64,000 nucleotides of DNA from positions 27,376-91,375 of the IMG/VR virus record IMGVR_UViG_3300028844_006574; one strand, 5' to 3'. A program made the position numbers and the translations under genes. The notes beneath the pieces were generated by a model. The model saw only the letters and a program-made list of their open reading frames with translations. It ran no database searches and was not told where the DNA came from. Shown here one piece after another: positions 20,717 through 56,810 of this stretch (positions are counted from its first letter, which is position 1; every line of letters begins with the position of its first letter). Origin of the DNA: a virus.

Positions 20717-20751
20717 TAATTGAACCTCAATTATTAACCTATAAATATAAA

Positions 20752-25254: not shown

Positions 25255-27734
25255 AGACACCTTTCAACATACCTAAAATAGAGTTTGATATCACACATGA
25301 AAATCAAACATCCACTGGTGAAACTATCACACAGACATACGAACAAATCGTACTCAAAGGACCTCATGAAATACAGTTCAACATAAAATCCCAACCTGAG
25401 CTGATCAAGGTGGTATACAATCTTGACTACACTCAACAGTGTGGTACTACAACACAACCAGCGAGTAGTGAAGTACGATATGAACCCGAATTTACTACTG
25501 GTAGTAACAATTTGTTAACAGATCCCGCTGATTCAATAATCACTGGTCGGTTCTTTCCAGATAAATACCAGTACGAAACAACTGTATTCCCAGGCTTAAC
25601 AACTATAGATAAAGACCTTAACAAAGTCGTGCATCAGGTGAGTGTACGAGTTGCACAACCATCCGTACATGATTATGTCAATGATTTAGACATTGTGGAT
25701 GTAAGAACATTTACAAATCTGTCCGGTAAACGAGGCAAGGCATTGCTATTACTAGAGGACCAAACAAACAATTTTATAGTCCCTATGACATTGTTTGGAG
25801 AGAGACAATACACCAGTACAATTGAGCTAGGAGACGCACTGTTTGGGCAGATAGTATTCAATATATGTGTATCTAGAGCACCGTACGATAATGTCAAACC
25901 TGACGGTACTGAAGTGGTAACAACTAGTGAGTCATTTTTAGCAGAAACAGTTTTTTACGGTCAGACCAGGTTTGGTACATATGAAGCTGAAGGTTTCCCC
26001 GCAGCTGTTCGTGACCAATTCACAATAAACAACACAGGTAGTTATCCGCTCCGGGTTTTATCTGTTACTAACCCTAACACACCCTTTTATATGGATGGTA
26101 TTCAACTAGAAGGTGTATACTCCCCGGTAGACAGTGGATGTTTAAATTCAAAATCTATTTATGTTTATTTCTCCCCACCTGACTTGATTGATTCAGCGCA
26201 ATCACAAGGCCAAAATTTTTCTGTAACATATCAGGATAGCATCATCATTGAAAATGACAGTGTGAACAACCCCGAGATCAAAATAGATTTAACAGGTACC
26301 GCCAAATCCGGGTACTTGGTTGTAGATGGACCCGGTTTCACTAGTGATGACCCGGTTGAGTTTGACCCAACATTAGTTGGTGAAAAAACATTACAACCAA
26401 TCACAATAAGCAACAACGGTAGCTGCCCGGTCAAGATATTCGATATTGAATATGATGACGATGCGGAAATCACTCCAGATGGAGTGTCATACCCATTTGT
26501 TTTGTTACCTCAAGAATCTAGAACAATAAATGCGGCTTTCAGACCAACTGAAGCGCGTTACTTAGAAGATATAGCAGACGAAATCGCATACCCGGTACCA
26601 TATGAAGCTGTGATACCTAAAACCGTCAACTGGACCATACGTAGCAACGCGTTCAATGACATAACTGTACCAGCCGCTTTGACCGGTCATGCATTCACTA
26701 CTACAACTACCACAACTACTACTACAACAACTACTACAACAACTACTACAACCACCACAACTACAACTACAACTACAACTCAAAGTACCACAACCACAAC
26801 CACAACCACAACCACAACTACAACATGTCCTGTTGAACCGGAAGTGGTGTTTTTGAAGTGGCAAGTGAATCCAGTGTATGTTGTGGAAGGAAAAACAACA
26901 AGCATCAGAATAATTAGGGACAGTCGTAGTACATACAAAGGAGCTCTGCTTGTGGATTACCATCCAGAGGGTGTTACTGACAGTGCACAACCCGGAGAAG
27001 ATTATGATGAATCTGTGAACACTAGTGTGGCGTTCTTCCCTGAAAATGCCATGTCGACCGACATCATAATCGGTACATTGGCTGGTGGTGGTATCACGAT
27101 AGACGGTGTAGAGTTACAGATTTCAGGTTTGGAAACAGCTGAATATTTCAACATGATGTTGACCAACATCAGAGCCACTCCACCAGAGGGTACCGAGGAT
27201 GTGTTCCCGTACAGATGTGTACCTGGATATTTCGTAACCGATTCAGAACCAGAAGGTATACCGTCTGCAAGTGAACCAGTACCATACGTACCCAAGCCTG
27301 TGTTGATTCTAGACAAACCTGGTGATGCCAGCGTGTCGTTCAAAGGGAGTTGTACATTGGAAGACGTGACCGCGTTGTTGAGATGTGTGGATGATGATGT
27401 TACACTGGAACTATTAGAAGTGGATGCGCCAGGAGACGGTGCAACATTGTTGGAAGTGTTCAACAAATACACGGGTCAGCTGATCACCACAGTACCGGTG
27501 GCCAACTTACAAAACGGACCGGTGTATATAGATGTAAAGGAACACCAAGATGAATTTGGTTATGTACAAATACTGTATGAAGCATGCGGTTGCTGTATAG
27601 AGAAGGTGTATTCATGCACTTGTTCAATAATAGATGTTGAAGGAGAGTTGGTATGTTGTAACATCGCAGGTGTTGATGGAGAGCTTGTATGTTGTGAGAT
27701 AACACAGGTAGAAGGAGAACTTAGTTGCGGTTAA
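25251..27734 (+). CDS. Virion adhesin-like protein: Ig-like (ASH-type) domains, poly-Thr linker, Calx-beta-like domain, Cys-rich C-terminal repeats
   Basis: FTINNTGSYPLRV and ITISNNGSCPVKI Ig-like starts; a 41-Thr tract; VVEGKTTSIRIIR...AQPGEDY...ETAEYFNMMLTN (Calx-beta-like); three V(E/D)GEL(V/S)C repeats. Confidence 0.65.
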   Translation: MKTPFNIPKIEFDITHENQTSTGETITQTYEQIVLKGPHEIQFNIKSQPELIKVVYNLDYTQQCGTTTQPASSEVRYEPEFTTGSNNLLTDPADSIITGRFFPDKYQYETTVFPGLTTIDKDLNKVVHQVSVRVAQPSVHDYVNDLDIVDVRTFTNLSGKRGKALLLLEDQTNNFIVPMTLFGERQYTSTIELGDALFGQIVFNICVSRAPYDNVKPDGTEVVTTSESFLAETVFYGQTRFGTYEAEGFPAAVRDQFTINNTGSYPLRVLSVTNPNTPFYMDGIQLEGVYSPVDSGCLNSKSIYVYFSPPDLIDSAQSQGQNFSVTYQDSIIIENDSVNNPEIKIDLTGTAKSGYLVVDGPGFTSDDPVEFDPTLVGEKTLQPITISNNGSCPVKIFDIEYDDDAEITPDGVSYPFVLLPQESRTINAAFRPTEARYLEDIADEIAYPVPYEAVIPKTVNWTIRSNAFNDITVPAALTGHAFTTTTTTTTTTTTTTTTTTTTTTTTTTTTQSTTTTTTTTTTTTTCPVEPEVVFLKWQVNPVYVVEGKTTSIRIIRDSRSTYKGALLVDYHPEGVTDSAQPGEDYDESVNTSVAFFPENAMSTDIIIGTLAGGGITIDGVELQISGLETAEYFNMMLTNIRATPPEGTEDVFPYRCVPGYFVTDSEPEGIPSASEPVPYVPKPVLILDKPGDASVSFKGSCTLEDVTALLRCVDDDVTLELLEVDAPGDGATLLEVFNKYTGQLITTVPVANLQNGPVYIDVKEHQDEFGYVQILYEACGCCIEKVYSCTCSIIDVEGELVCCNIAGVDGELVCCEITQVEGELSCG
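26697..26825 (+). repeat. Poly-threonine coding repeat (28 Thr, Gln-Ser, 13 Thr)
   Basis: Mixed ACT/ACA/ACC codons in frame within 25251..27734. Confidence 0.95.
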
Positions 27735-41121: not shown

Positions 41122-41152
41122 AGCACCAGTCTTAACCGACTGGTGCTTTTTT
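41122..41152 (+). terminator. Rho-independent terminator after gp23
   Basis: Perfect 10-bp stem AGCACCAGTC-TTAACC-GACTGGTGCT followed by a T run; it overlaps the last codons of the convergent clpC gene. Confidence 0.85.
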
Positions 41153-43570
41153 ATGTTCAATTTTAACAGAGTCTTGATCAACCAGAGCTGAAATTTCGAC
41201 CGGTCGTCCATGTTCCAACAAGAATTTAGCTAGTGGTGTTTGCACTTTAGATTGAATAATTCTTCTCAATGGCCGGGCTCCATATTTTTTATCAAACCCT
41301 TGCTCCAGTAAAAGGTTCTTGACTTGAGTGGATATGCTCAATTTAACTTGCTGTAGTTCCATCCGGTCGGTAAACTTTTTCAATTCGTTATTCAATATAC
41401 GTTTACACGTCTCCTGATTGAGACTGTTGAACATGACTATCTCATCCAATCTATTGATAAACTCAGGTCTCAAGTGGCTCTGTAGCTGCTTTTTAATGTT
41501 GTCCAGGTTTTGTTCATCAGTACTACCGAACCCTACAACATGATTATGCTGCATGCGATCGGCTCCGATATTGGTGGTTAACAATATCACACAATTTCTA
41601 AAATTGATACTCACTCCCCGGCTATCTGTCAATTGACCTTCATCTAAAAGTTGTAATAGTAACTGCATCACATCCGGATGTGCCTTTTCAATCTCATCAA
41701 ACAGTACAACACTGTATGGTTCTTGTCTGACACTTTCAGTCAATTGCCCACCTTCACCGTAACCTACATAACCAGGAGGACTGCCAATCAACTTGCTCAC
41801 GGAATGTGCTTCCATTAACTCACTCATATCCACCCGGATCATGTTAGTTTCATCACCATAAACAAATTTAGCAAGTTGTTTAGCTAGATAAGTTTTACCA
41901 ACACCTGTTGGACCCATCAACAAAAATGACCCCACCGGTCTCTCCGGGTCTGATACATCCATTCTGCTCCGAATGATACTGTCTGAAATCACTTCAACTG
42001 CTTGGTCTTGACCTAGAATATATTTTTTAAGATTACGTTCTAGACCTACCAATTTTTTAGACTCACTCCTCTTCAAATGCTCCAACGGAACACCACACCA
42101 GCTGCTGACTGTTGATCGAATATGCTGCTCTGTTATTTCCAAAGTCTTTTGTTTATTCAAACTTGACTTGACCGCCTTGGTTCGTTGAGACTTGAACTTT
42201 TTCTCAGCACCTCGAAATGTAGCTGCCGCTATAAAATCATCATTTGTCAAATGTTCCAGCGCCAGATCTGCACAGTCTTGTATTTTACCTTCTAGTTTGA
42301 CAACTCTAGAAGGTACTGTACCGTGCTTGAGCCTCAATCGGGCCGCGCATTCATCTAATACATCAATCGCTTTGTCTGGAAAGAATCTGTCTGTTATGTA
42401 CCTACCACTTAAATCAACCGCTAGTTGTACAGCTTCTTCTGTATATATGACGTTATGAAACTCCTCGTATTTGTGTTTCAAACCAGTTAATATATCGAAA
42501 GTCATTTCATAATCCGGTTCATCCACTACAATTTTTTGAAACCTACGCTCCAATGCTCCGTCAGATTCTATAAATTCACGATACTCATCAAATGTTGTAG
42601 TACCAATACAGCACAAACCACCTCTGCTCAATGCTGGTTTCAATATGTTGGCCGCGTCCATTGCTCCATCTGCATTACCAGCACCAACCAACATATGAAT
42701 CTCATCAATAAACACAACCGTATCTTTCAATTGCATCAAATCATCCATCACCTGTTTCATACGTTCTTCGAACTGACCACGATATTTGGTCCCCGCGACC
42801 ATCAGAGACAAATCCAAATTATAAATTTGCTTGTTTTTGAGTTGTAATGGAGCTGTACCCGCTGCAATCATGTTGCACAAACCTTCAACAACGGCTGTTT
42901 TACCCACACCCGGTTCCCCTACAAGTACTGGATTATTCTTTTGTCTTCTGCACAACACTTGCATCACTCGTTCAATCTCCTGCTCTCTCCCAACAACAGG
43001 ATCCAATAATCCTTCGTTGGATTGCAATGTCATGTTTACCGCAAATTGTTCTAGGGCTTCCCCTGGTTTCATCATCTGTTCGTTCCCACCTGTAGAAGCT
43101 CCTTGTTCTTGTTCTGATATGTCTTGTTGAGGGTTCAAATATTCTCTAAATGCTTGAGCTAACCCCGGTAGATCCACTCCGTTATCGTACATGAACGAAA
43201 ACGCTTGACACTCCGTATGACACACAATACCCAACATCAAGTGCTCGGTACCAATGAACGAGTGATTCATCTTGGCACTAACGTTTTTAGCCAGTCTGAG
43301 CACACGTTCTACCTCATCGCTCATGGGTATTTTAATATCTGTATCCTTAGCCCTAATCACTTGATTATCAAGATGGTAATGTAAGCGATCAGTTAATGTT
43401 TTTATATTGACACCCTGCATGACCAGTAGTTCATGTGCCAAGCTATCTTCTGTACATATTGTGGCCATCAACACGTGTAAAGTGGTGATTTGACCGTGAT
43501 CGTACTTACCAGCATACAGCTGCGTTTTCGCTAGCAAATCATTCGCTCGTGGTGAAAAGTTGTACATCAT
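41132..43570 (-). CDS. clpC: ClpC-type Hsp100 AAA+ unfoldase
   Basis: Double Clp-N repeats (IGTEHLMLG), GEPGVGKT and GPTGVGKT Walker A motifs, a short UVR-like middle domain (DDFIAAATFR), a VGF ClpP-docking loop and YGARPLRR. Confidence 0.92.
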   Translation of the reverse strand: MMYNFSPRANDLLAKTQLYAGKYDHGQITTLHVLMATICTEDSLAHELLVMQGVNIKTLTDRLHYHLDNQVIRAKDTDIKIPMSDEVERVLRLAKNVSAKMNHSFIGTEHLMLGIVCHTECQAFSFMYDNGVDLPGLAQAFREYLNPQQDISEQEQGASTGGNEQMMKPGEALEQFAVNMTLQSNEGLLDPVVGREQEIERVMQVLCRRQKNNPVLVGEPGVGKTAVVEGLCNMIAAGTAPLQLKNKQIYNLDLSLMVAGTKYRGQFEERMKQVMDDLMQLKDTVVFIDEIHMLVGAGNADGAMDAANILKPALSRGGLCCIGTTTFDEYREFIESDGALERRFQKIVVDEPDYEMTFDILTGLKHKYEEFHNVIYTEEAVQLAVDLSGRYITDRFFPDKAIDVLDECAARLRLKHGTVPSRVVKLEGKIQDCADLALEHLTNDDFIAAATFRGAEKKFKSQRTKAVKSSLNKQKTLEITEQHIRSTVSSWCGVPLEHLKRSESKKLVGLERNLKKYILGQDQAVEVISDSIIRSRMDVSDPERPVGSFLLMGPTGVGKTYLAKQLAKFVYGDETNMIRVDMSELMEAHSVSKLIGSPPGYVGYGEGGQLTESVRQEPYSVVLFDEIEKAHPDVMQLLLQLLDEGQLTDSRGVSINFRNCVILLTTNIGADRMQHNHVVGFGSTDEQNLDNIKKQLQSHLRPEFINRLDEIVMFNSLNQETCKRILNNELKKFTDRMELQQVKLSISTQVKNLLLEQGFDKKYGARPLRRIIQSKVQTPLAKFLLEHGRPVEISALVDQDSVKIEHKKAPVG

Positions 43571-49077: not shown

Positions 49078-50123
49078 GCGCTACAGGGTATGTAGTGTTT
49101 TGTGAAGATAAATACTACTTGTTATGGCAACTAGAGTTGTTAATCGAATCTATAACAAACCGTGCTGGTGTACATGAAAAAGACATAGTAGTATTATATG
49201 CAGACCCTAGCTATCACCACAGGAGTGTAGAGTGGGGACAATCACCATACTTGAAAAGTTTGATGAAACATCACCATGATGTAAAATTTTATCCTGTACA
49301 AAACTGGGGCCGGCGAAACTGGTATTTTCGTTTTGAAGATAATAAAACTTGGCACCCTAAACAGTACCCGGGTATAAACAAATGGCTGAGTTTATGTGAA
49401 GCAGCCAACGCCGGTTGGTTAGATGATTTTACTGAAGTTGTACTTTTAGAACAAGATTTGTGGTTCAGCGGCAATTTTCCAAAATTAGGTCATGGAAATT
49501 GTGTTACAGCCAATTGGTTGTGTGACAGATACAACGCGTTTGAGGTGAATGACAAAACAGATGATATGAACACCCCTGGATTCGACTTGGATGATATCAT
49601 GAAGCTGTGCAAAGTACCATCGTCTCATCGGAAAAGATGGACCTCCGGAGCCATTGTGTTCAAATTTGTCACCAAGCAACTAGTACAAGCCAAGTTTTTA
49701 AATGCACTGGTCAATTACAACCAATTGCTGATGACACTAGGTGAACTAGCACTACCACAGGGCGCTCGTCATGAAACAGACATGGTCGCTCCATCTTTGG
49801 CCATGGCCCACTGTGGTATGCATTGTAGAACGGTTGAGGATTTACAATGGAAATCAGACGTTTGGACCTGGCACCAAAAACCACCAGACAATGTAGTTGT
49901 TCATTACGGTTGGGACTTCGCTGCATACCCACATTTGAACTCAACGTTTAGTAAATTTAAATATACTAACAAAGGTCCATGGACAGACAAAGAGGTTTTG
50001 ATGGCAGAATATAATGACCTTGCATTTGATTGGATTAAATCATTATACAACGATATATTCAAAATAGGTGAAAAAAACATACAAAGGGTCTGCGATAGAC
50101 AGGTTTATCTCCCAGTTATATGA
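49074..50123 (+). CDS. GT96/GT95-like protein O-glycosyltransferase (peptidyl-serine galactosyltransferase / HPAT-like)
   Basis: VFCEDKYYLLWQLELLIES, YPGINK, VVLLEQDLWF, TDMVAPSLAMAHCGMH and VVHYG..F....FSK follow the plant SERGT1 motif order as I recall it (VEC..YFDWQ, YPAINKP, VVILDADM, SEMYGYSFGAA, HYG..F....F.K). Confidence 0.55.
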   Translation: MSATGYVVFCEDKYYLLWQLELLIESITNRAGVHEKDIVVLYADPSYHHRSVEWGQSPYLKSLMKHHHDVKFYPVQNWGRRNWYFRFEDNKTWHPKQYPGINKWLSLCEAANAGWLDDFTEVVLLEQDLWFSGNFPKLGHGNCVTANWLCDRYNAFEVNDKTDDMNTPGFDLDDIMKLCKVPSSHRKRWTSGAIVFKFVTKQLVQAKFLNALVNYNQLLMTLGELALPQGARHETDMVAPSLAMAHCGMHCRTVEDLQWKSDVWTWHQKPPDNVVVHYGWDFAAYPHLNSTFSKFKYTNKGPWTDKEVLMAEYNDLAFDWIKSLYNDIFKIGEKNIQRVCDRQVYLPVI

Positions 50124-50515
50124 TATTAAAAAATATATTAACAAAGGTTGATATACAACAATGTATATCCGAGCTAACAATACTACATCGTCAGCATTAT
50201 TATGAGCCTGGTTACATTGTGTCTAGTAAAATCATTAGCGAAAAATATAACAATGTATTTGGTAAACTTTTGGATTATAAACACACGACACAGAAACACA
50301 CTATAGACTTTCAATTATCAAATGAAACATACCAATTGTACATACAAAACAAATTGTTGAGAGACTGGTTTGTTGAAAAATCGCAACCATATTCTATAAT
50401 GTATTATATGGATATCAATTACCCTAAAAAATTAACTCCGATGGCAGTATTACTTGAAGTAATATTTGAATTGACTTATCATTCTTTCCCAGAAACTGTT
50501 GAAAACCCTGTTTAA
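50120..50515 (+). CDS. Hypothetical protein
   Basis: 131 aa; ATGA overlap with the previous gene. Confidence 0.55.
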   Translation: MILKNILTKVDIQQCISELTILHRQHYYEPGYIVSSKIISEKYNNVFGKLLDYKHTTQKHTIDFQLSNETYQLYIQNKLLRDWFVEKSQPYSIMYYMDINYPKKLTPMAVLLEVIFELTYHSFPETVENPV

Positions 50516-50534
50516 CCCTTATAATTAATAATAT

Positions 50535-52589
50535 ATGAAGCGCACAAAGACCTTATCCGAATTACTCAAAAAATCATCAAATGAAAAATTTAATGACCTG
50601 CACTGGTCCGGTTCCTTTGAAGAGTATCTGAACCTTGTAGAGGATCAACCTAAAATTACTCGTAACTCATACCAGCGTATGTACGATATGATCACATCGT
50701 ACGGTACTGAAGAATTTACATATTGTAAACAAAGCGTCACCAAATATAAATTTTTCTCTCAGTGCACGGATAGTATCGGTATTTATGGTTTAGAAGAGCC
50801 GTTAATGGAATTGGTAGATGTGTTAAGATCTGCTGCATATCATTACGGACCAGAACGTAGAATAATTTTGTTACATGGTCCAGTAGGTAGTAGTAAATCA
50901 ACAATTGTGACCATCCTCAAAAAAGGTTTGGAGAGATATAGTCATTCCGACCCATTGTATTCATTCACTTGGCTAGTAAAAGACGAAAAGGGTAATGATA
51001 TTGAGGTGCCATGTCCAATGAACGAGGAACCCCTCAAACTGTTACCAGGTGATGCCCGTTCAAATATTCTAGAACGAATTAACAAAAAGCTAGGCAAATC
51101 AAACTACCGTATCAAATTGGATGGTAATCTGTCCCCTGTTTCAGAATATTATCAGCAAAAACTACTAGAACAATACAATGGAGATTATGAAAAGATGCTG
51201 GCTCATGTAAGAGTTAGAAGAGTACTACTCTCAGAAAAGAACCGAGTAGGTATAGGAACATTTCAACCAAAGGACGAGAAAAGCCAGGACGCGACTGAAT
51301 TAACCGGTGATATAAACTATAGAAAACTAGCACTGTATGGTAGCGAAAGTGACCCCCGTGCATTTGATTTTGATGGTGAATTTCTAGTGTCTAATCGAGG
51401 TATGATAGAGTTTCAAGAAATACTGAAGTTACAGACTGAGTTCTTGTATGACTTATTAGGTGCTACACAAGAACATCGGGTCAAGCCCAAACGATTCAAT
51501 CAAGTACCTATTGATGAAGTGATAATAGGTCATACTAACAACGCTGAATTTGACAAGCTTAAAAACAACAAATTCATGGAAGCATTGAGAGACCGCACAA
51601 TCAAGATTGATGTACCATATCTACTCAAAATCGAGGATGAGAAAAAGGTTTATGATCATTTTTATAATACAACAACTGTACATAAACACATAGCACCCCA
51701 CACAACATATTTAGCAGCTTTGTTTGCAGTGGTATCTCGGTTGGAAAAGCCAGTGAAAAATGACATGACAGTTATTCAAAAAGCAAAATTGTACAACGGT
51801 GTAGGTGTCCATGGATTTACGGAAGAGCATGTCAAGGAGATGCTAGAAGAAACACCAAATGAAGGACTAACATCTGGGATAAGTGCGCGCTTCATCCAGA
51901 ATCAGTTTAGTAACGCGATTGTTAATCCGCGAATGGGAAAAAAGAGCATCAATCCCTTCATGCTCTTCTCTGAAATTAGAGAAGGACTAAAAAATTACTC
52001 TGGATTTGCTAGTGAAGACTCACGTTCTTTGGCATTAGAACGTCTAGAACTTGTAGAAAAAGAATACGACCGTATAGTGAAACGAGAAGTGCAACAAGCT
52101 TTGAGCAGCAGCGAAGAAGCAATCCGGACATTGTGTGCAAATTATATTGACAGTATAGTATCATATATAAACGAAGAGAAAGTGATCAATCCAATCACTG
52201 GTAAAGATGAACCACCAAATGAAAAGCTCATGAGATCGATCGAAGAGAAGATCAACGTATCAACTAACATGAAAGACGATTTTCGTAGAGAGATAATGAA
52301 CTACATGGGATCTCTAGCAGCCAAAGGAAAAACTTTCAGCTATGATAGTAACGAGCAATTGCACAAAGCATTAGAAAAGAAACTATTTGAAGACATTAAA
52401 GACAGTATCAAGTTATCCGCCCTGGCACAAGACACAGCCACTGTAGTGGATAAAGAGCTTGTGGAAAAAATAAATGCGCTTAAACAAAGATTAATCAAAG
52501 ATTTCGGTTACGATGAAGACAGCGCCCATGATGTACTTGTATATGTCGGTAGTATTTTCGCCAGAGGTGACGACGTAGGAGCCAAATAA
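50535..52589 (+). CDS. prkA: PrkA/YeaG-family AAA+ protein
   Basis: WSGSFEEYL, RNSYQRMYDMI, ILLHGPVGSSKS, CPMNEEPL, GSESDPRAFDFDGE, NRGMIEF, EALRDR, GISARF. Confidence 0.95.
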   Translation: MKRTKTLSELLKKSSNEKFNDLHWSGSFEEYLNLVEDQPKITRNSYQRMYDMITSYGTEEFTYCKQSVTKYKFFSQCTDSIGIYGLEEPLMELVDVLRSAAYHYGPERRIILLHGPVGSSKSTIVTILKKGLERYSHSDPLYSFTWLVKDEKGNDIEVPCPMNEEPLKLLPGDARSNILERINKKLGKSNYRIKLDGNLSPVSEYYQQKLLEQYNGDYEKMLAHVRVRRVLLSEKNRVGIGTFQPKDEKSQDATELTGDINYRKLALYGSESDPRAFDFDGEFLVSNRGMIEFQEILKLQTEFLYDLLGATQEHRVKPKRFNQVPIDEVIIGHTNNAEFDKLKNNKFMEALRDRTIKIDVPYLLKIEDEKKVYDHFYNTTTVHKHIAPHTTYLAALFAVVSRLEKPVKNDMTVIQKAKLYNGVGVHGFTEEHVKEMLEETPNEGLTSGISARFIQNQFSNAIVNPRMGKKSINPFMLFSEIREGLKNYSGFASEDSRSLALERLELVEKEYDRIVKREVQQALSSSEEAIRTLCANYIDSIVSYINEEKVINPITGKDEPPNEKLMRSIEEKINVSTNMKDDFRREIMNYMGSLAAKGKTFSYDSNEQLHKALEKKLFEDIKDSIKLSALAQDTATVVDKELVEKINALKQRLIKDFGYDEDSAHDVLVYVGSIFARGDDVGAK

Positions 52590-52590
52590 C

Positions 52591-53733
52591 ATGCCCGGTC
52601 GCCGCATACGCGAGGATCATCGCGAGTATCGTGATTTGATCAAAGACAAGGTCAAAAACCGGGTCAAAGATCACATCAAAACCGGTAAAAAGGTCAAGCG
52701 CCATGGAAAAGACTTTGTGGTAGTTGACATACCGGTCATTGATTTACCATCGTTCAGACATGGTCGTAACAAAGGAGGTGGTATTGGAAACGGTCCTGGT
52801 GATGTAGGTGATGAAGTGGGTGATGGTCCTCCAAAACCCGGTAAAGGTAAAGCCGGTGATCAAGAAGCTGAACACACGATGGGAGTCGGGGTCAATGTAG
52901 ATGATTATATTGACATACTAGGTGAAGAGCTGGAGCTACCTAATTTAACTCCTAGACCTAAGGGAGATATTGTCAACCAAAAGGTAAAGTATAGTGGATT
53001 GAGCAGGGTGGGTAACAACTGCTTATTACATAAAAAGAAAACGTTGAGAAACGCTATGAAACGTGTCATATCCACGGGACAATTTGATCCGAACGACATA
53101 TCTAATGTAGTACCTATAAATCAAGACAAAGTGTATAAAACATGGAAGATCGTTGACTCTCCTGATATAAACGCAGTAGTGTTTTTCCTACAAGACATCA
53201 GCTGGAGTATGGATGGTGAGAAACGAGACCTAGTCAGAGAGTTATGCTGGTATCTAGAACAATGGATTCGTAAATTTTACAAGCAAGTGGATTTGAAACA
53301 TATAGTACATGATGTAGTTGCTCAAGAAGTAGACCAAGAGAAATTCTATGCATACGAGGCTGGTGGTGGTACAAAAATAAGCTCCGCTTTTGAATTGACA
53401 TCAAATATTATAGACAGTTCTTACCCTCTAGAAGACTGGAACATGTATGTATTTTACTTTTCAGACGGTGAGAATTTCACTTCAGATACCAAAAGGTGTA
53501 TACAGTTACTAGAAGAGTTACAGATGAAATGTAATTTGATAGGCGTAGGTGAAGTAAAAGGAACTACCGACTGGTCTGATTTTGCCCTCTCTGTTGAAAA
53601 TGAAATTGAAGGTAGAGTATTAGATGAAGGTGTAGTGACAACAGCTTCTATAGACTCACATGATGACGTGTTAAGAGCCATACAAGATTTTCTTGCACCA
53701 TGTGAGCAGAAAAAGCCGTACACTGTAACATGA
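52591..53733 (+). CDS. yeaH: YeaH/YhbH (DUF444) vWA-like protein
   Basis: LGEELELPNL, AVVFFLQDISWSM, GGGTKISSA, YPLEDWNMYVFYFSDGEN. Confidence 0.93.
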   Translation: MPGRRIREDHREYRDLIKDKVKNRVKDHIKTGKKVKRHGKDFVVVDIPVIDLPSFRHGRNKGGGIGNGPGDVGDEVGDGPPKPGKGKAGDQEAEHTMGVGVNVDDYIDILGEELELPNLTPRPKGDIVNQKVKYSGLSRVGNNCLLHKKKTLRNAMKRVISTGQFDPNDISNVVPINQDKVYKTWKIVDSPDINAVVFFLQDISWSMDGEKRDLVRELCWYLEQWIRKFYKQVDLKHIVHDVVAQEVDQEKFYAYEAGGGTKISSAFELTSNIIDSSYPLEDWNMYVFYFSDGENFTSDTKRCIQLLEELQMKCNLIGVGEVKGTTDWSDFALSVENEIEGRVLDEGVVTTASIDSHDDVLRAIQDFLAPCEQKKPYTVT

Positions 53734-55355
53734 AGCAAGCCACGAGCAATTTATTAGAGCAAGGAGTGTCTCCTGAATTGGCGGAGCATATACCAGATGT
53801 GATCCGTGTGTGTAAAGACCAGGGCCTGGACCCTTACGAACTGGTTATTGAGGAATATAATGCGGATGAAATTGCTGAACTCGGAGCATACGGTGGCTTC
53901 CCGGTGAGATACCCACATTTCAGTTTTGGTCAGCAATATGAAACATTACACCATCAGTATCATAGTGGGATGGGTAAGATTTACGAAATGGTTGTAAACA
54001 ACGACCCGACGTACATGTACTTGCAACGAAATAATCCGCTGGTTGATAATCTAACGGTTGTGGCTCATGCACTAGCTCATTCAGATTTTTTCAAAAACAA
54101 TATATACTTTGGAAACACCAACAGAAACATGATGAACGTGATGGCCAACCATGGACAGAAAATAAGACAATACATGGAAGCTTATGGACATAACAGAGTT
54201 TCAAAATTTTTAGATGCATGTTTATCAATTGATGATCTAGTCGACCCAAACGTTGTATGGGACGATAGCAGATATAACAAACCCAAGAAGATAGAATTCG
54301 ACAAACCAGTAGAACAATTTTCACCAAAGCGAATTGAAACAAAGAGTTACATGGATCATTTCGTCAACACACAAAAGTTTTTGGACCGGCAGAGGAGTAA
54401 ACACAAACGCGATGCTTGGAAGCATCTCAAAAAATACCCACTCCAACCGGAGAAAGACATTTTGTTGTTCATACTCAAGCACGTACGATTAGAACAGTGG
54501 CAACAAAACATATTGTCCATGGTACGTGACGAGAGTGTTTACTTCCGCCCACAAATGCTGACAAAAGTGTTGAACGAAGGCTGGGCCAGTTACTGGGACA
54601 GTTTCATCATGACACAGTGCGGATACGCTCAAGATGCTGGTATATTTGATTACGCACGTCACCACGCAGGGGTGTTAGGAGGTAAGTATGCCATGAGCAA
54701 CCCATACCGATTGGGTAATTATCTGCTACGTGATGTGGAAGATAGATGGAACAAGGGTCAATTCGGTCGTGAGTGGGAAAATTGCGAGGACACACACCAA
54801 AAGGCCAATTGGGATACCAAAGCCATGCTCGGTAGGGAGAAAATATTTCAGATCAGAGAAGACTATGGAGATATTAACTTTATCAACGAGTTTTTCACAC
54901 AAGAATTTTGTGACAAACATGAGTATTTCGAATACACGCTGGATCCAGAGACCAACAAGTATGTGATAGCCAACAGAGACTATCAATCGATCAAGCAACA
55001 ATTGATCAAACGATATGTTAATGGAGGCCGACCGGTCATAAACTTGACATCGTTCAGCAAAGACGGTATCGAGTTGCTACACAAATACGATGGTATGGAA
55101 CTGGATGCTAAATATGTTGAAAAAACACTCAAAATGATGTATAACATAGTGAACATGCCAATACAATTGAAAACAAAAGTGACACAGCAAGAGAAAACCG
55201 AGACATATGGACATGTGTTCGCGGTTCGATCCGCGCAACAAGAAAAAAAGTCTTTGGAAAACAGAGTGTACAAATATGATGGTGACCAGTTCAAGCACTG
55301 GGAAAATTACAAACATAAAGATTTTAAAATATCAGAAGAAGATCTACCGTTTTAA
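53730..55355 (+). CDS. spoVR: SpoVR/YcgB-family protein
   Basis: AYGGFPVRYPHFSFG, IYEMVVNNDP, VVAHALAHSDFFKNN, YFRPQMLTKVLNEGWASYW, NPYRLG. Confidence 0.95.
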   Translation: MKQATSNLLEQGVSPELAEHIPDVIRVCKDQGLDPYELVIEEYNADEIAELGAYGGFPVRYPHFSFGQQYETLHHQYHSGMGKIYEMVVNNDPTYMYLQRNNPLVDNLTVVAHALAHSDFFKNNIYFGNTNRNMMNVMANHGQKIRQYMEAYGHNRVSKFLDACLSIDDLVDPNVVWDDSRYNKPKKIEFDKPVEQFSPKRIETKSYMDHFVNTQKFLDRQRSKHKRDAWKHLKKYPLQPEKDILLFILKHVRLEQWQQNILSMVRDESVYFRPQMLTKVLNEGWASYWDSFIMTQCGYAQDAGIFDYARHHAGVLGGKYAMSNPYRLGNYLLRDVEDRWNKGQFGREWENCEDTHQKANWDTKAMLGREKIFQIREDYGDINFINEFFTQEFCDKHEYFEYTLDPETNKYVIANRDYQSIKQQLIKRYVNGGRPVINLTSFSKDGIELLHKYDGMELDAKYVEKTLKMMYNIVNMPIQLKTKVTQQEKTETYGHVFAVRSAQQEKKSLENRVYKYDGDQFKHWENYKHKDFKISEEDLPF

Positions 55356-56810
55356 ATGATCATTAATTATTTAAAAGTTTACACTCCCCCGTCACCCAAA
55401 GTTAGATATGGAATCAATCAAGACGGAGGTTATGTTGGAGTTAAAACATCAACTGATATTTTATTATCAGGTGGGATTGGTACAGATATTTCATTTGAGT
55501 TAGATTTTGTTAAAATGAACGATGTGAATGCGGTTTGCGCGGATTCTATATTTTATAATGGTAATGCTCGATTTATTGATTTGGAAGATTTTGTAAACAA
55601 CAGTCAATTTAAAAATGATCCTTATATTTCAAAATTGCAATTCGTAAACAAATTCGTTGGTAAAGACGAAAACGATAAATCCACAAATTATCATAATTTT
55701 TTAAAACAATTCAGTGACATTACATTGAAACTTGACATTGAAGGTGGGGAATTTGATTACATTAATTCATTATCTAATAAACAATTAAATAAAATAAACC
55801 AAATTTTTCTTGAAGTGCATTGGTTAGATAAATTAAATGATTTTTCTTTTTTTGAAAAATTAAATCAGAATCATATATTGATTCATGCACACGGCAATAA
55901 CAACGGTCGTGTGTTCAGAGTTGGCAAATCGAGAATACCAAAGGTACTAGAAGTCACTTATTTACATAAAAAGTTTTTTAGTGGTGAATACAAGTTAAAT
56001 AGTGAACCACTGCCGTCCTCAATAGACTTTCCAAATCGTATCAAAAGAGCCGATTTGAGTTTAAATTTTCCACCATTTGTTAATTTTAAAAAAATGAAAA
56101 TACCAAAAATAATACATCAGACATGGGTCTTTAAGAACGATGATTACATAAAAGGTTTGCGAGATAAATGGTTAGGTTACAATCCAGAATATGAATATTT
56201 TATATATAACAATAAAGACAATTTAAAATTCATCAAAGAAAATTTTAATGAAAGAATTTATAACTGCTACTCTAGAATATTGAACGGATCAGCTAAGGCC
56301 GATTTTTTCAGATATGCAGTTTTATATATCAAAGGTGGTGTATATTTAGATATAGATTTTTTACCCAAAGCTAGCCTCTCAGATTGTATAGAAGAAAATG
56401 ATGAACTTATCATAACTCATGACGACCAAGTTCGCCGTAGACATGCAAATCCAAACGGTGTCTTTAACGCCTTTATTTGTGCAAAACCCAAGCATGAATT
56501 ATTATTAATTCTAATTAATCAAATTTGTGAGTATATAGAGAATGGTGAACATAATAATGTTCGACATGCAATACATTCACTTACAGGTTCGAAGCTTTTT
56601 TCTGAAAAATTTAGAAATTATTTCAAAACGCAGAATATCAAAGAATGTAAAACTGATTCCTACAAAATAGTAACACACCATGCGTTTACACCTACACCCC
56701 ATAATAACACAATCACTTGTGGGGATAAAATTTTATTTACATCCCAAAATAGCATACCAAATAGAAGTTTGATCCCACATTATAACTCAAATTTTGAGTT
56801 ATATAGATGA
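55356..56810 (+). CDS. Fusion of FkbM-like SAM methyltransferase and GT32 (DXD) glycosyltransferase
   Basis: N-terminal RYG..QDGGY, LSGGIG.DISFE, LKLDIEGGE, HAHGNN; C-terminal IPKIIHQTW and KADFFRYAVLYIKGGVYLDID. Confidence 0.85.
   Translation: MIINYLKVYTPPSPKVRYGINQDGGYVGVKTSTDILLSGGIGTDISFELDFVKMNDVNAVCADSIFYNGNARFIDLEDFVNNSQFKNDPYISKLQFVNKFVGKDENDKSTNYHNFLKQFSDITLKLDIEGGEFDYINSLSNKQLNKINQIFLEVHWLDKLNDFSFFEKLNQNHILIHAHGNNNGRVFRVGKSRIPKVLEVTYLHKKFFSGEYKLNSEPLPSSIDFPNRIKRADLSLNFPPFVNFKKMKIPKIIHQTWVFKNDDYIKGLRDKWLGYNPEYEYFIYNNKDNLKFIKENFNERIYNCYSRILNGSAKADFFRYAVLYIKGGVYLDIDFLPKASLSDCIEENDELIITHDDQVRRRHANPNGVFNAFICAKPKHELLLILINQICEYIENGEHNNVRHAIHSLTGSKLFSEKFRNYFKTQNIKECKTDSYKIVTHHAFTPTPHNNTITCGDKILFTSQNSIPNRSLIPHYNSNFELYR

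Follow-up and report, generated by a model that had tools for sequence, protein, structure and literature searches.

We analyzed a 64,000-nucleotide (nt) stretch of viral DNA (hereafter, the window), which corresponds to positions 27376–91375 of a 91-kb IMG/VR virus record, IMGVR_UViG_3300028844_006574, estimated to be 43% complete, and which carries three adjacent genes encoding homologs of PrkA/YeaG, YeaH, and SpoVR. The first gene on the plus strand, a homolog of prkA/yeaG (spdA) at 50535–52589, encodes a 684-amino acid (aa) AAA+ ATPase with a PrkA C-terminal domain. The second, a yeaH/yhbH homolog at 52591–53733 on the same strand, encodes a 380-aa DUF444 protein with a vWA-type metal site (MIDAS), and the third, a spoVR/ycgB homolog at 53730–55355, also on the plus strand, encodes a 541-aa protein whose N-terminal ~400 residues are predicted to be zincin-like. 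A single nucleotide separates prkA from yeaH, yeaH and spoVR overlap by 4 nt, and all three open reading frames (ORFs) are full length, stop-free and intein-free. The original prediction, made from the sequence, described a complete, intact and tightly packed PrkA/YeaG-YeaH-SpoVR operon, and the ORFs, the Pfam matches and the invariant residues described below bear this out. Besides further T4-like structural genes, the record also carries a T4-type portal gene and a gp23-like major head gene; the trio lies 9.5 kb downstream of gp23, between the genes for QueF and NeuB. A megablast search of the region against 50,697 phage records returned no match.

The PrkA homolog matched the Pfam profiles AAA_PrkA (PF08298; E = 3e-88, profile positions 2–357 of 358) and PrkA C-terminal domain (PF06798; E = 3e-71, positions 1–255 of 255), both with scores well over the gathering scores, and its residues 17–677 aligned with the “serine protein kinase” of PDB 9xip (E = 1e-214). 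The structure of this 692-aa protein has been solved in three entries (9xip, 9xiq, and 9xir; 30 chains). The Walker A motif of the window protein, GPVGSSKST (residues 115–123), has GPVGSAKST as its aligned counterpart in 9xip, and an aromatic-Gly motif, ALYGS (residues 266–270), with a pore-loop-like YG, is conserved. In Bacillus subtilis PrkA, the Walker A residue K108 is the lysine required for ATP binding (PMC9512850), and the Walker A lysine of the window protein is probably its equivalent, as judged from the motif alone. The same study proposed that PrkA belongs to the Lon protease family; Pfam shows no Lon_C domain in the window protein, and we rejected this assignment. Many PrkA homologs of 1000–1570 aa (P0121, P0122, P0124, P0126, and others) align with the query as two or three discontinuous blocks, which suggests inteins within the AAA+ domain; the window copy lacks any.

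YeaH matched PF04285 (DUF444; E = 6e-68), and its MIDAS residues D202, S204, S206, T261, and D292, found in the window within the motifs DISWS, GGGT, and SDGEN, are invariant over 25 phage and bacterial sequences. SpoVR matched PF04293 (E = 9e-109, profile positions 6–406 of 407) and retains all 47 columns that are invariant over 40 phage and bacterial sequences. The residues kept include H63, E86, H113, H117, E268, and E283, and two of the invariant motifs are H113-x3-H117 and N282-E283-G284. For YeaH and SpoVR, a sequence search found no relatives with a solved structure.

By every sequence criterion that could be applied, the trio belongs to the family of the cellular prkA-yhbH-spoVR module. 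Most of the bacterial loci that we fetched have prkA, yeaH, and spoVR side by side, on one strand and in the same order as in the window. The long-form module of Bdellovibrionota, Myxococcota, and Planctomycetota consists of the same three Pfam families with the same order and adjacency, and it shares the Walker A, MIDAS, and SpoVR His and Glu residues of the window proteins, with identities of 52–58% for PrkA, 33–38% for YeaH, and 35–45% for SpoVR. Unlike this cellular module, the trio of the window sits in a lytic-type T4-like phage, falls in a separate clade with a long stem, shows upstream only a sigma-70-like motif at the level of chance and no sign of control by RpoS, sigma-54, or a sporulation sigma factor, and shares SpoVR substitutions that are the phage clade's own. 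In the SpoVR of this T4-like phage clade (residues 63–70 and 287–291), PHFSFGQQY stands in place of PHW(R/K)FGMEY and YWDS in place of YWHS; the replaced positions are nearly fixed in bacteria.

The trio recurs in related phages. Among ten related loci in IMG/VR, all eight that reach far enough hold it in the same order, and the wider gene order from g46257 through prkA-yeaH-spoVR-neuB to g58237 is kept in L009/L103, L101, L102, and L167 and, as far as spoVR, in L105. L009/L103 are contigs of 222–229 kb, and the 222-kb record of L009 is rated 100% complete. Contigs from 2023 estuary runs, which belong to other studies, bridge g49074/g50120 into prkA-yeaH-spoVR. In a collection of 5.8 billion proteins, ~80 clusters are 72–98% identical to the PrkA of the window; all are environmental, none comes from a named bacterium, and they lie on contigs of up to 290 kb. 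Below this group the identities break off: they are 72–98% for environmental proteins, including the IMG/VR T4-like copies, and at most 58% for bacteria. When one genome from each of 185,579 species was searched, the best bacterial PrkA was 57% identical and came from Bdellovibrionota, followed by Myxococcota and Planctomycetota. The codon usage of the trio falls within the range of the phage's own genes.

In the PrkA tree (122 rows), the window, every IMG/VR T4-like copy and the near-identical environmental proteins form one clade with a support of 100, a stem of 0.41 and no named bacterium inside. The YeaH and SpoVR trees recover the same clade with the same inner branching as PrkA, and a concatenated tree calculated under a site-heterogeneous model gives it a support of 100 and a stem of 1.05, or about one change per site. 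Of the two outcomes that the original prediction had set side by side, a phage-specific clade and a recent capture from a host, all three gene trees thus show the former, a separate phage/environmental clade. The clade unites the window's genes with copies from other uncultured T4-like phages of marine and estuarine origin. Among cellular proteins, those nearest to the phage-type PrkA (L013–L092) come mostly from two predatory or protein-scavenging groups, Bdellovibrionota and Myxococcota, and from Planctomycetota; these relatives came from a biased, pattern-based scan, and a word-based protein search also gave Planctomycetota and Myxococcota.

We also calculated the ratio of nonsynonymous to synonymous substitution rates (dN/dS) against relatives at 85–90% nucleotide identity. 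The values were 0.017–0.022 for prkA, 0.024–0.029 for yeaH, and 0.007–0.014 for spoVR, and that of the upstream neighbor g50120 was 0.24–0.41. The trio is thus under very strong purifying selection. At the protein level, the trio of L101 is 84–91% identical to that of the window, compared with 41–82% for the flanking genes.

These observations bear on the possibility that the trio is an artefact, that is, mis-assembled host DNA, the flank of a provirus, or decaying passenger genes useless to the phage. Such an account could point to the bacterial type of the trio and to the label “provirus” that IMG/VR gives to related records of L004 and L012. However, the joints recur in separately assembled contigs and in the runs of other studies, and we found no chimeric join; the trio is syntenic in the 222-kb record rated complete; no bacterial locus is near-identical, as no genome among the 185,579 species exceeds 57% and the best cellular PrkA from any search is 57–58% identical; and the dN/dS values of 0.007–0.029 are at odds with decay. 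Also, the trio of L004 is flanked by phage genes (those for the gp32 single-stranded DNA-binding protein, UvsX, and a methyltransferase), and that of L003 adjoins a GTP cyclohydrolase gene of a phage family (PHROG). We therefore regard an artefact as extremely improbable and as refuted as far as the present data allow. The original prediction had taken the three genes to be long-resident phage genes and not flanking host DNA, and the bridging contigs, the clade, the codon usage and the dN/dS values back this view.

Within the lineage of the window, the conserved gene order indicates that the trio has been inherited together with its neighbors. Between more distant phages the pattern is different. 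Compared with the window, the records of L004 and L011 show just ~28% identity in their portal and head proteins and yet 71–76% in PrkA, and the context of the trio has changed: in L004 it stands next to genes for gp32, UvsX, and a DNA methyltransferase, and in L003 next to one for GTP cyclohydrolase. Because of this disparity and the changed contexts, the trio appears to move between distant T4-like lineages as well, and the simplest reading is that of a phage-adapted module that is also exchanged among them. The head-protein match in the incomplete L004 and L011 records could be to a paralog, but the portal comparison agrees with it. A search for the portal in the complete relative G003 came back empty, probably because the first-look filter missed it, and carries no weight here. 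Strictly vertical inheritance across the clade was rejected on the same figures for L004 and L011.

The remaining phage copies occupy other positions in the PrkA tree. Those of Thermus phages group with a different set of proteins, and those of the Ralstonia jumbo phage RsoM2USA and of LR756502 go with the E. coli YeaG type; because of these positions, we conclude that phages acquired the trio several times. A pair formed by the huge phage LR756511 and a 343-kb IMG/VR contig, 49–51% identical to the window, may be the sister of the window clade and may share its origin, and this applies to these two only.

The original prediction knew of no characterized phage version. Trios had in fact been on record: that of the Thermus phage phiYS40 (GenBank DQ997624) is annotated as “serine kinase”, “SpoVR”, and “conserved bacterial protein”, another is present in the Thermus phage Lalka27b, and that of RsoM2USA has been described (PMC8504454). 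Deposited sequences with the trio comprise the Thermus phages phiYS40, TMA, phiLo, MN1, and Lalka, RsoM2USA, and the huge phages LR756511 and LR756502; PHROGs holds families for all three proteins (22605, 19072, and 35217); and a marine virome study ranked spoVR first in abundance among “sporulation” auxiliary genes (PMC8940887). What stands of the claim is that the literature we searched contained no experimental study of any phage copy. Like the window, the deposited phage trios consist of a complete PrkA, a DUF444/vWA protein, and SpoVR in tailed phages. The copies of the Thermus phages and of RsoM2USA/LR756502 represent separate acquisitions, with PrkA only 24–33% identical to that of the window, and the Thermus phages arrange the genes as vWA-SpoVR-PrkA, unlike the window. 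Thus, phage-borne trios were already known, and the window provides a good example and not a new kind of system.

Upstream of prkA, a sigma-70-like sequence, TTGAAA-15 nt-TATAAT (50499–50525, plus strand), ends 9 nt before the prkA ATG and constitutes a candidate promoter. The original prediction had placed the trio behind this motif. The motif is present with the 15-nt spacer that was claimed, but the evidence that it acts as a promoter is weak, since the spacer is short (our consensus scan accepts 16–18 nt) and the counts are at the level of chance. The consensus scan found 58 promoter-like sites in the region, compared with 45.7 ± 6.7 expected, and thus no enrichment; TTGAAA-15-TATAAT with at most one mismatch occurs 4 times, compared with 1.6 expected, a count that was reached in 8 of 100 shuffles. 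TTGAAA itself is still part of the coding sequence of the upstream ORF, near its 3′ end (50120–50515; stop codon at 50513–50515). The motif is identical in the close relatives L098–L100, and in L099 it stays beside prkA despite a 936-nt insertion that splits prkA from the upstream gene; the alignment of more distant relatives shows TTGA(A/T)(A/G) followed ~17 nt on by a TATAAT-like hexamer. Because the motif is kept in relatives, L099 included, a real promoter upstream of prkA is possible. The 936-nt insertion (L099:94–1032; also present in contigs of two 2023 estuary runs) encodes a 312-aa ORF with no Pfam match. It is located just upstream of prkA, at window positions 50447–50479, and is flanked by a duplicated 3′ end of the ORF 50120–50515; the duplicated flank therefore points to an insertion hot spot upstream of prkA.

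Another short sequence, ATAAATA, which we take to resemble the core of T4 late promoters, lies 10–21 nt before 12 ORF starts, mostly those of structural genes (for example, at 20741, 30280, 32654, 34442, 37697, and 48187), and these account for 12 of its 20 occurrences in the window. A Shine-Dalgarno-like motif is found at only 8 of the 49 starts. These features suggest that late promoters of the T4 type produce very short leaders and that the host can do without Shine-Dalgarno pairing. ATAAATA is absent before prkA, and the presence of a sigma-70-type and not a late-type sequence at this position hints that the trio might be expressed before the late phase. The original prediction had also read the frequent CCGG sites as a sign of long residence. 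CCGG is indeed frequent across the window (287 sites, compared with 79 expected from shuffles), and CCGG and CGCG are its two most over-represented tetranucleotides under a Markov model. However, the triad is poorer in CCGG (2.7 per kb) than the DNA to its left (4.8 per kb), and prkA, at 1.46 per kb, shows no enrichment, so that the argument is weak; codon usage, phylogeny and dN/dS argue for long residence far better.

Two neighboring genes deserve mention. Between spoVR and neuB, a glycosyltransferase gene (Gly_transf_sug, with a DXD motif; 55356–56810) is missing in all the syntenic relatives (L009/L103, L101, L102, and L167), a contig from an independent run joins 55348 directly to 56848 and so skips the gene, and its G + C content at third codon positions, 0.24, is the minimum of the window. 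These features suggest that the gene was inserted recently and is specific to the strain. Adjoining the major head gene, the minus strand at 41132–43570 encodes an 812-aa ClpC/ClpB-type double AAA+ protein with the domains Clp_N, AAA, AAA_lid_9, AAA_2, and ClpB_D2-small. It is 68% identical to its counterpart in the complete relative G003, and its nearest matches in phage databases show ~42% identity and are mostly Gram-positive-associated records. A link between this gene and the trio was considered and rejected, as G003, the closest complete relative, is the only one of the searched records with the trio that also has the gene.

What the trio might do for a phage can be approached through its cellular homologs. 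In six bacteria, yeaG, yeaH, and ycgB are mutual best cofitness partners (10.1101/072470). In starving E. coli, a 2026 study found, the nonspecific breakdown of cytoplasmic proteins requires YeaG (renamed SpdA) and provides the cell with amino acids and ATP (PMC13684143). For PrkA of B. subtilis, a slow protease activity that depends on ATP has been reported (PMC9512850), and highly purified Bacillus anthracis PrkA had neither protease nor kinase activity (PMC13001217). The latter study placed B. anthracis PrkA in clade III of the AAA+ proteins, with a YME1-like pore loop and without protease active-site residues. If PrkA is required for proteolysis without being the protease, some partner peptidase must take part.

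The predicted structure of SpoVR offers a candidate for such a partner. The full-length model had a mean predicted local distance difference test (pLDDT) score of 75.7, and a model of residues 1–420 built with 40 sequences had a score of 79.1. When the SpoVR models were subjected to an exhaustive structural comparison, nearly all of the top 50 matches were zincins or zincin-like proteins. They included the DUF885 proteins 3o0y (Z = 11.5, root-mean-square deviation 3.6, 186 residues aligned) and 3iuk (Z = 10.1), M1 aminopeptidases (Z = 9.1–9.5, ~200 residues aligned; for 4fgm, Z = 9.5 and 203 residues), and thermolysin (Z = 7.6), as well as peptidases of the M30, M3, M32, M4, M9, M36, and M61 families. 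In the models, H113 and H117 lie on a helix formed by residues 104–123 and the invariant NEGWAS on another formed by residues 279–296, an arrangement that resembles that of gluzincins. NEGWAS also resembles what we take to be the third-ligand motif of M1 enzymes, NEGFAS, a likeness that we treat as a lead only. SpoVR may thus be a partner peptidase or a peptidase-derived subunit. In AAA+ zinc proteases of the FtsH/YME1 type, an AAA+ ring and an M41 zincin peptidase are joined in one chain, and PrkA together with a zincin-like SpoVR would look like such a machine divided between two chains; the analogy concerns the working principle, and we do not claim membership. Unlike FtsH/YME1, the trio consists of separate polypeptides with a vWA protein between them, and we noted no membrane anchor; in SpoVR, the catalytic Glu is missing from the HxxxH motif, and our searches revealed no homology to M41 at the sequence level.

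Taking these observations together, we suggest that the trio is a working, phage-adapted copy of the PrkA/YeaG(SpdA)-YeaH-SpoVR/YcgB module, its activity being surmised from the conservation of its sequences. By analogy with E. coli, the phage could well use it for ATP-driven turnover of host proteins that feeds its own synthesis, a reading that we put forward tentatively and with slightly more doubt than belief. The PrkA AAA+ ring would engage and unfold proteins with ATP during infection, YeaH would act as an adaptor or coupling subunit through its vWA/MIDAS site, and the predicted zincin-like SpoVR would supply or control the hydrolytic step. Broad turnover of host cytoplasmic proteins would then yield amino acids and catabolic energy for virions in nutrient-poor hosts. 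The phage would thus run on its own schedule a proteolysis program that the host reserves for starvation. Of the two functions offered by the original prediction, the remodeling or degradation of host proteins fits the recent work on YeaG (PMC13684143), and the control of host dormancy found no specific support.

Several points weigh against turnover of host proteins by the trio. No phage copy has been the subject of an experiment in the literature that we searched. In E. coli, starvation proteolysis consumes a few percent of the proteome each hour, perhaps too little to make a difference during a single lytic cycle. The protease activity of PrkA is disputed, having been reported in one study (PMC9512850) and not found in another (PMC13001217), and the PNAS paper on YeaG/SpdA does not mention YeaH or YcgB (PMC13684143). 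The remaining points concern SpoVR. Its sequences lack the catalytic Glu of zincins: the motif reads AH-A-L-A-H in the window and AH-V-Y-G-H in bacteria (AH-A/V-x-x-H), both His residues are invariant, and no sequence has Glu after the first His, as HEXXH would require. Foldseek matched SpoVR to no PDB entry at E ≤ 0.001, a search of the PDB sequences with a profile built from 25 SpoVR sequences was empty at E ≤ 10, the only Pfam matches at E ≤ 10 were the chance-level CofJ and MComp1, ESM Atlas gave no usable match, and our literature search found no paper linking SpoVR with a metallopeptidase. Also, Z scores of 8–11.5 are only moderate for a largely helical model. Because the Glu of HEXXH is missing, the Foldseek and profile searches came back empty and the Z scores are moderate, we regard the peptidase role of SpoVR as a lead that can be tested, short of a result.

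Two other accounts of the trio in infection have to be weighed against bulk turnover. In one, the trio would regulate or signal: a kinase-like or AAA+ switch would rewire the stress, starvation or dormancy regulators of the host without bulk proteolysis, for instance by keeping a starving host metabolically active or by blocking its entry into dormancy. The C-terminal domain of PrkA is kinase-like, and autophosphorylation of E. coli YeaG and its phosphorylation of AceA have been reported, as cited in PMC9512850; yet purified PrkA from B. subtilis and B. anthracis showed no kinase activity, and the P-loop of the kinase-like domain is degenerate (PMC9512850, PMC13001217). Price et al. interpret the trio as a signaling pathway, and mutant phenotypes vary by species (10.1101/072470), while the B. 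anthracis study favors a regulatory, non-enzymatic role (PMC13001217). Against these interpretations, flux measurements in E. coli showed YeaG-dependent bulk degradation with RpoS levels maintained (PMC13684143), and nothing in the window ties the trio to a regulator or sensor. We consider a regulatory role unlikely, though clearly worth keeping in view.

The other account retains proteolysis and narrows its targets to defined proteins, such as those of host defense or of competitor phages, or the phage's own scaffold or prohead proteins, in place of the whole proteome. The location of several trios seems to favor this notion: that of Lalka27b lies between portal/minor-head genes and the large terminase gene, that of phiYS40 ~1.2 kb from the terminase gene, and that of the window 9.5 kb downstream of gp23. 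Also, the vWA/MIDAS partners of AAA+ ATPases are often substrate adaptors, as in MoxR-vWA pairs. However, the context of the trio varies among L004, L003, and the window, no fixed partner or target gene accompanies it, and the bacterial process has been described as largely nonspecific (PMC13684143). Selective degradation therefore seems to us rather improbable, more so than a regulatory role.

Broad turnover of host proteins also admits a bolder version. PrkA-YeaH-SpoVR would be a three-part ATP-dependent protease, composed of an unfoldase, a vWA/MIDAS coupler and a non-canonical zincin-like peptidase, and its phage-adapted version would circulate among unrelated marine T4-like phages because it liquidates the host proteome, as a viral counterpart of starvation autophagy. 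We offer this version as a speculation that is unlikely to hold in full. The gain from the window alone is modest; the weight rests on the mechanism of the family and on the trading of the module from phage to phage. The trio is among the most widespread bacterial modules without a known mechanism, and its repeated acquisition by phages, its dN/dS of ~0.01–0.03 and its transfer constitute natural evidence that the three proteins work as a self-sufficient unit and benefit the phage during infection. Compact and with no sign of host-specific regulation, the phage copies could serve as material for reconstituting the machine. Should host protein indeed sustain phage production through the trio, ocean viruses would possess an auxiliary metabolic function of a new class.

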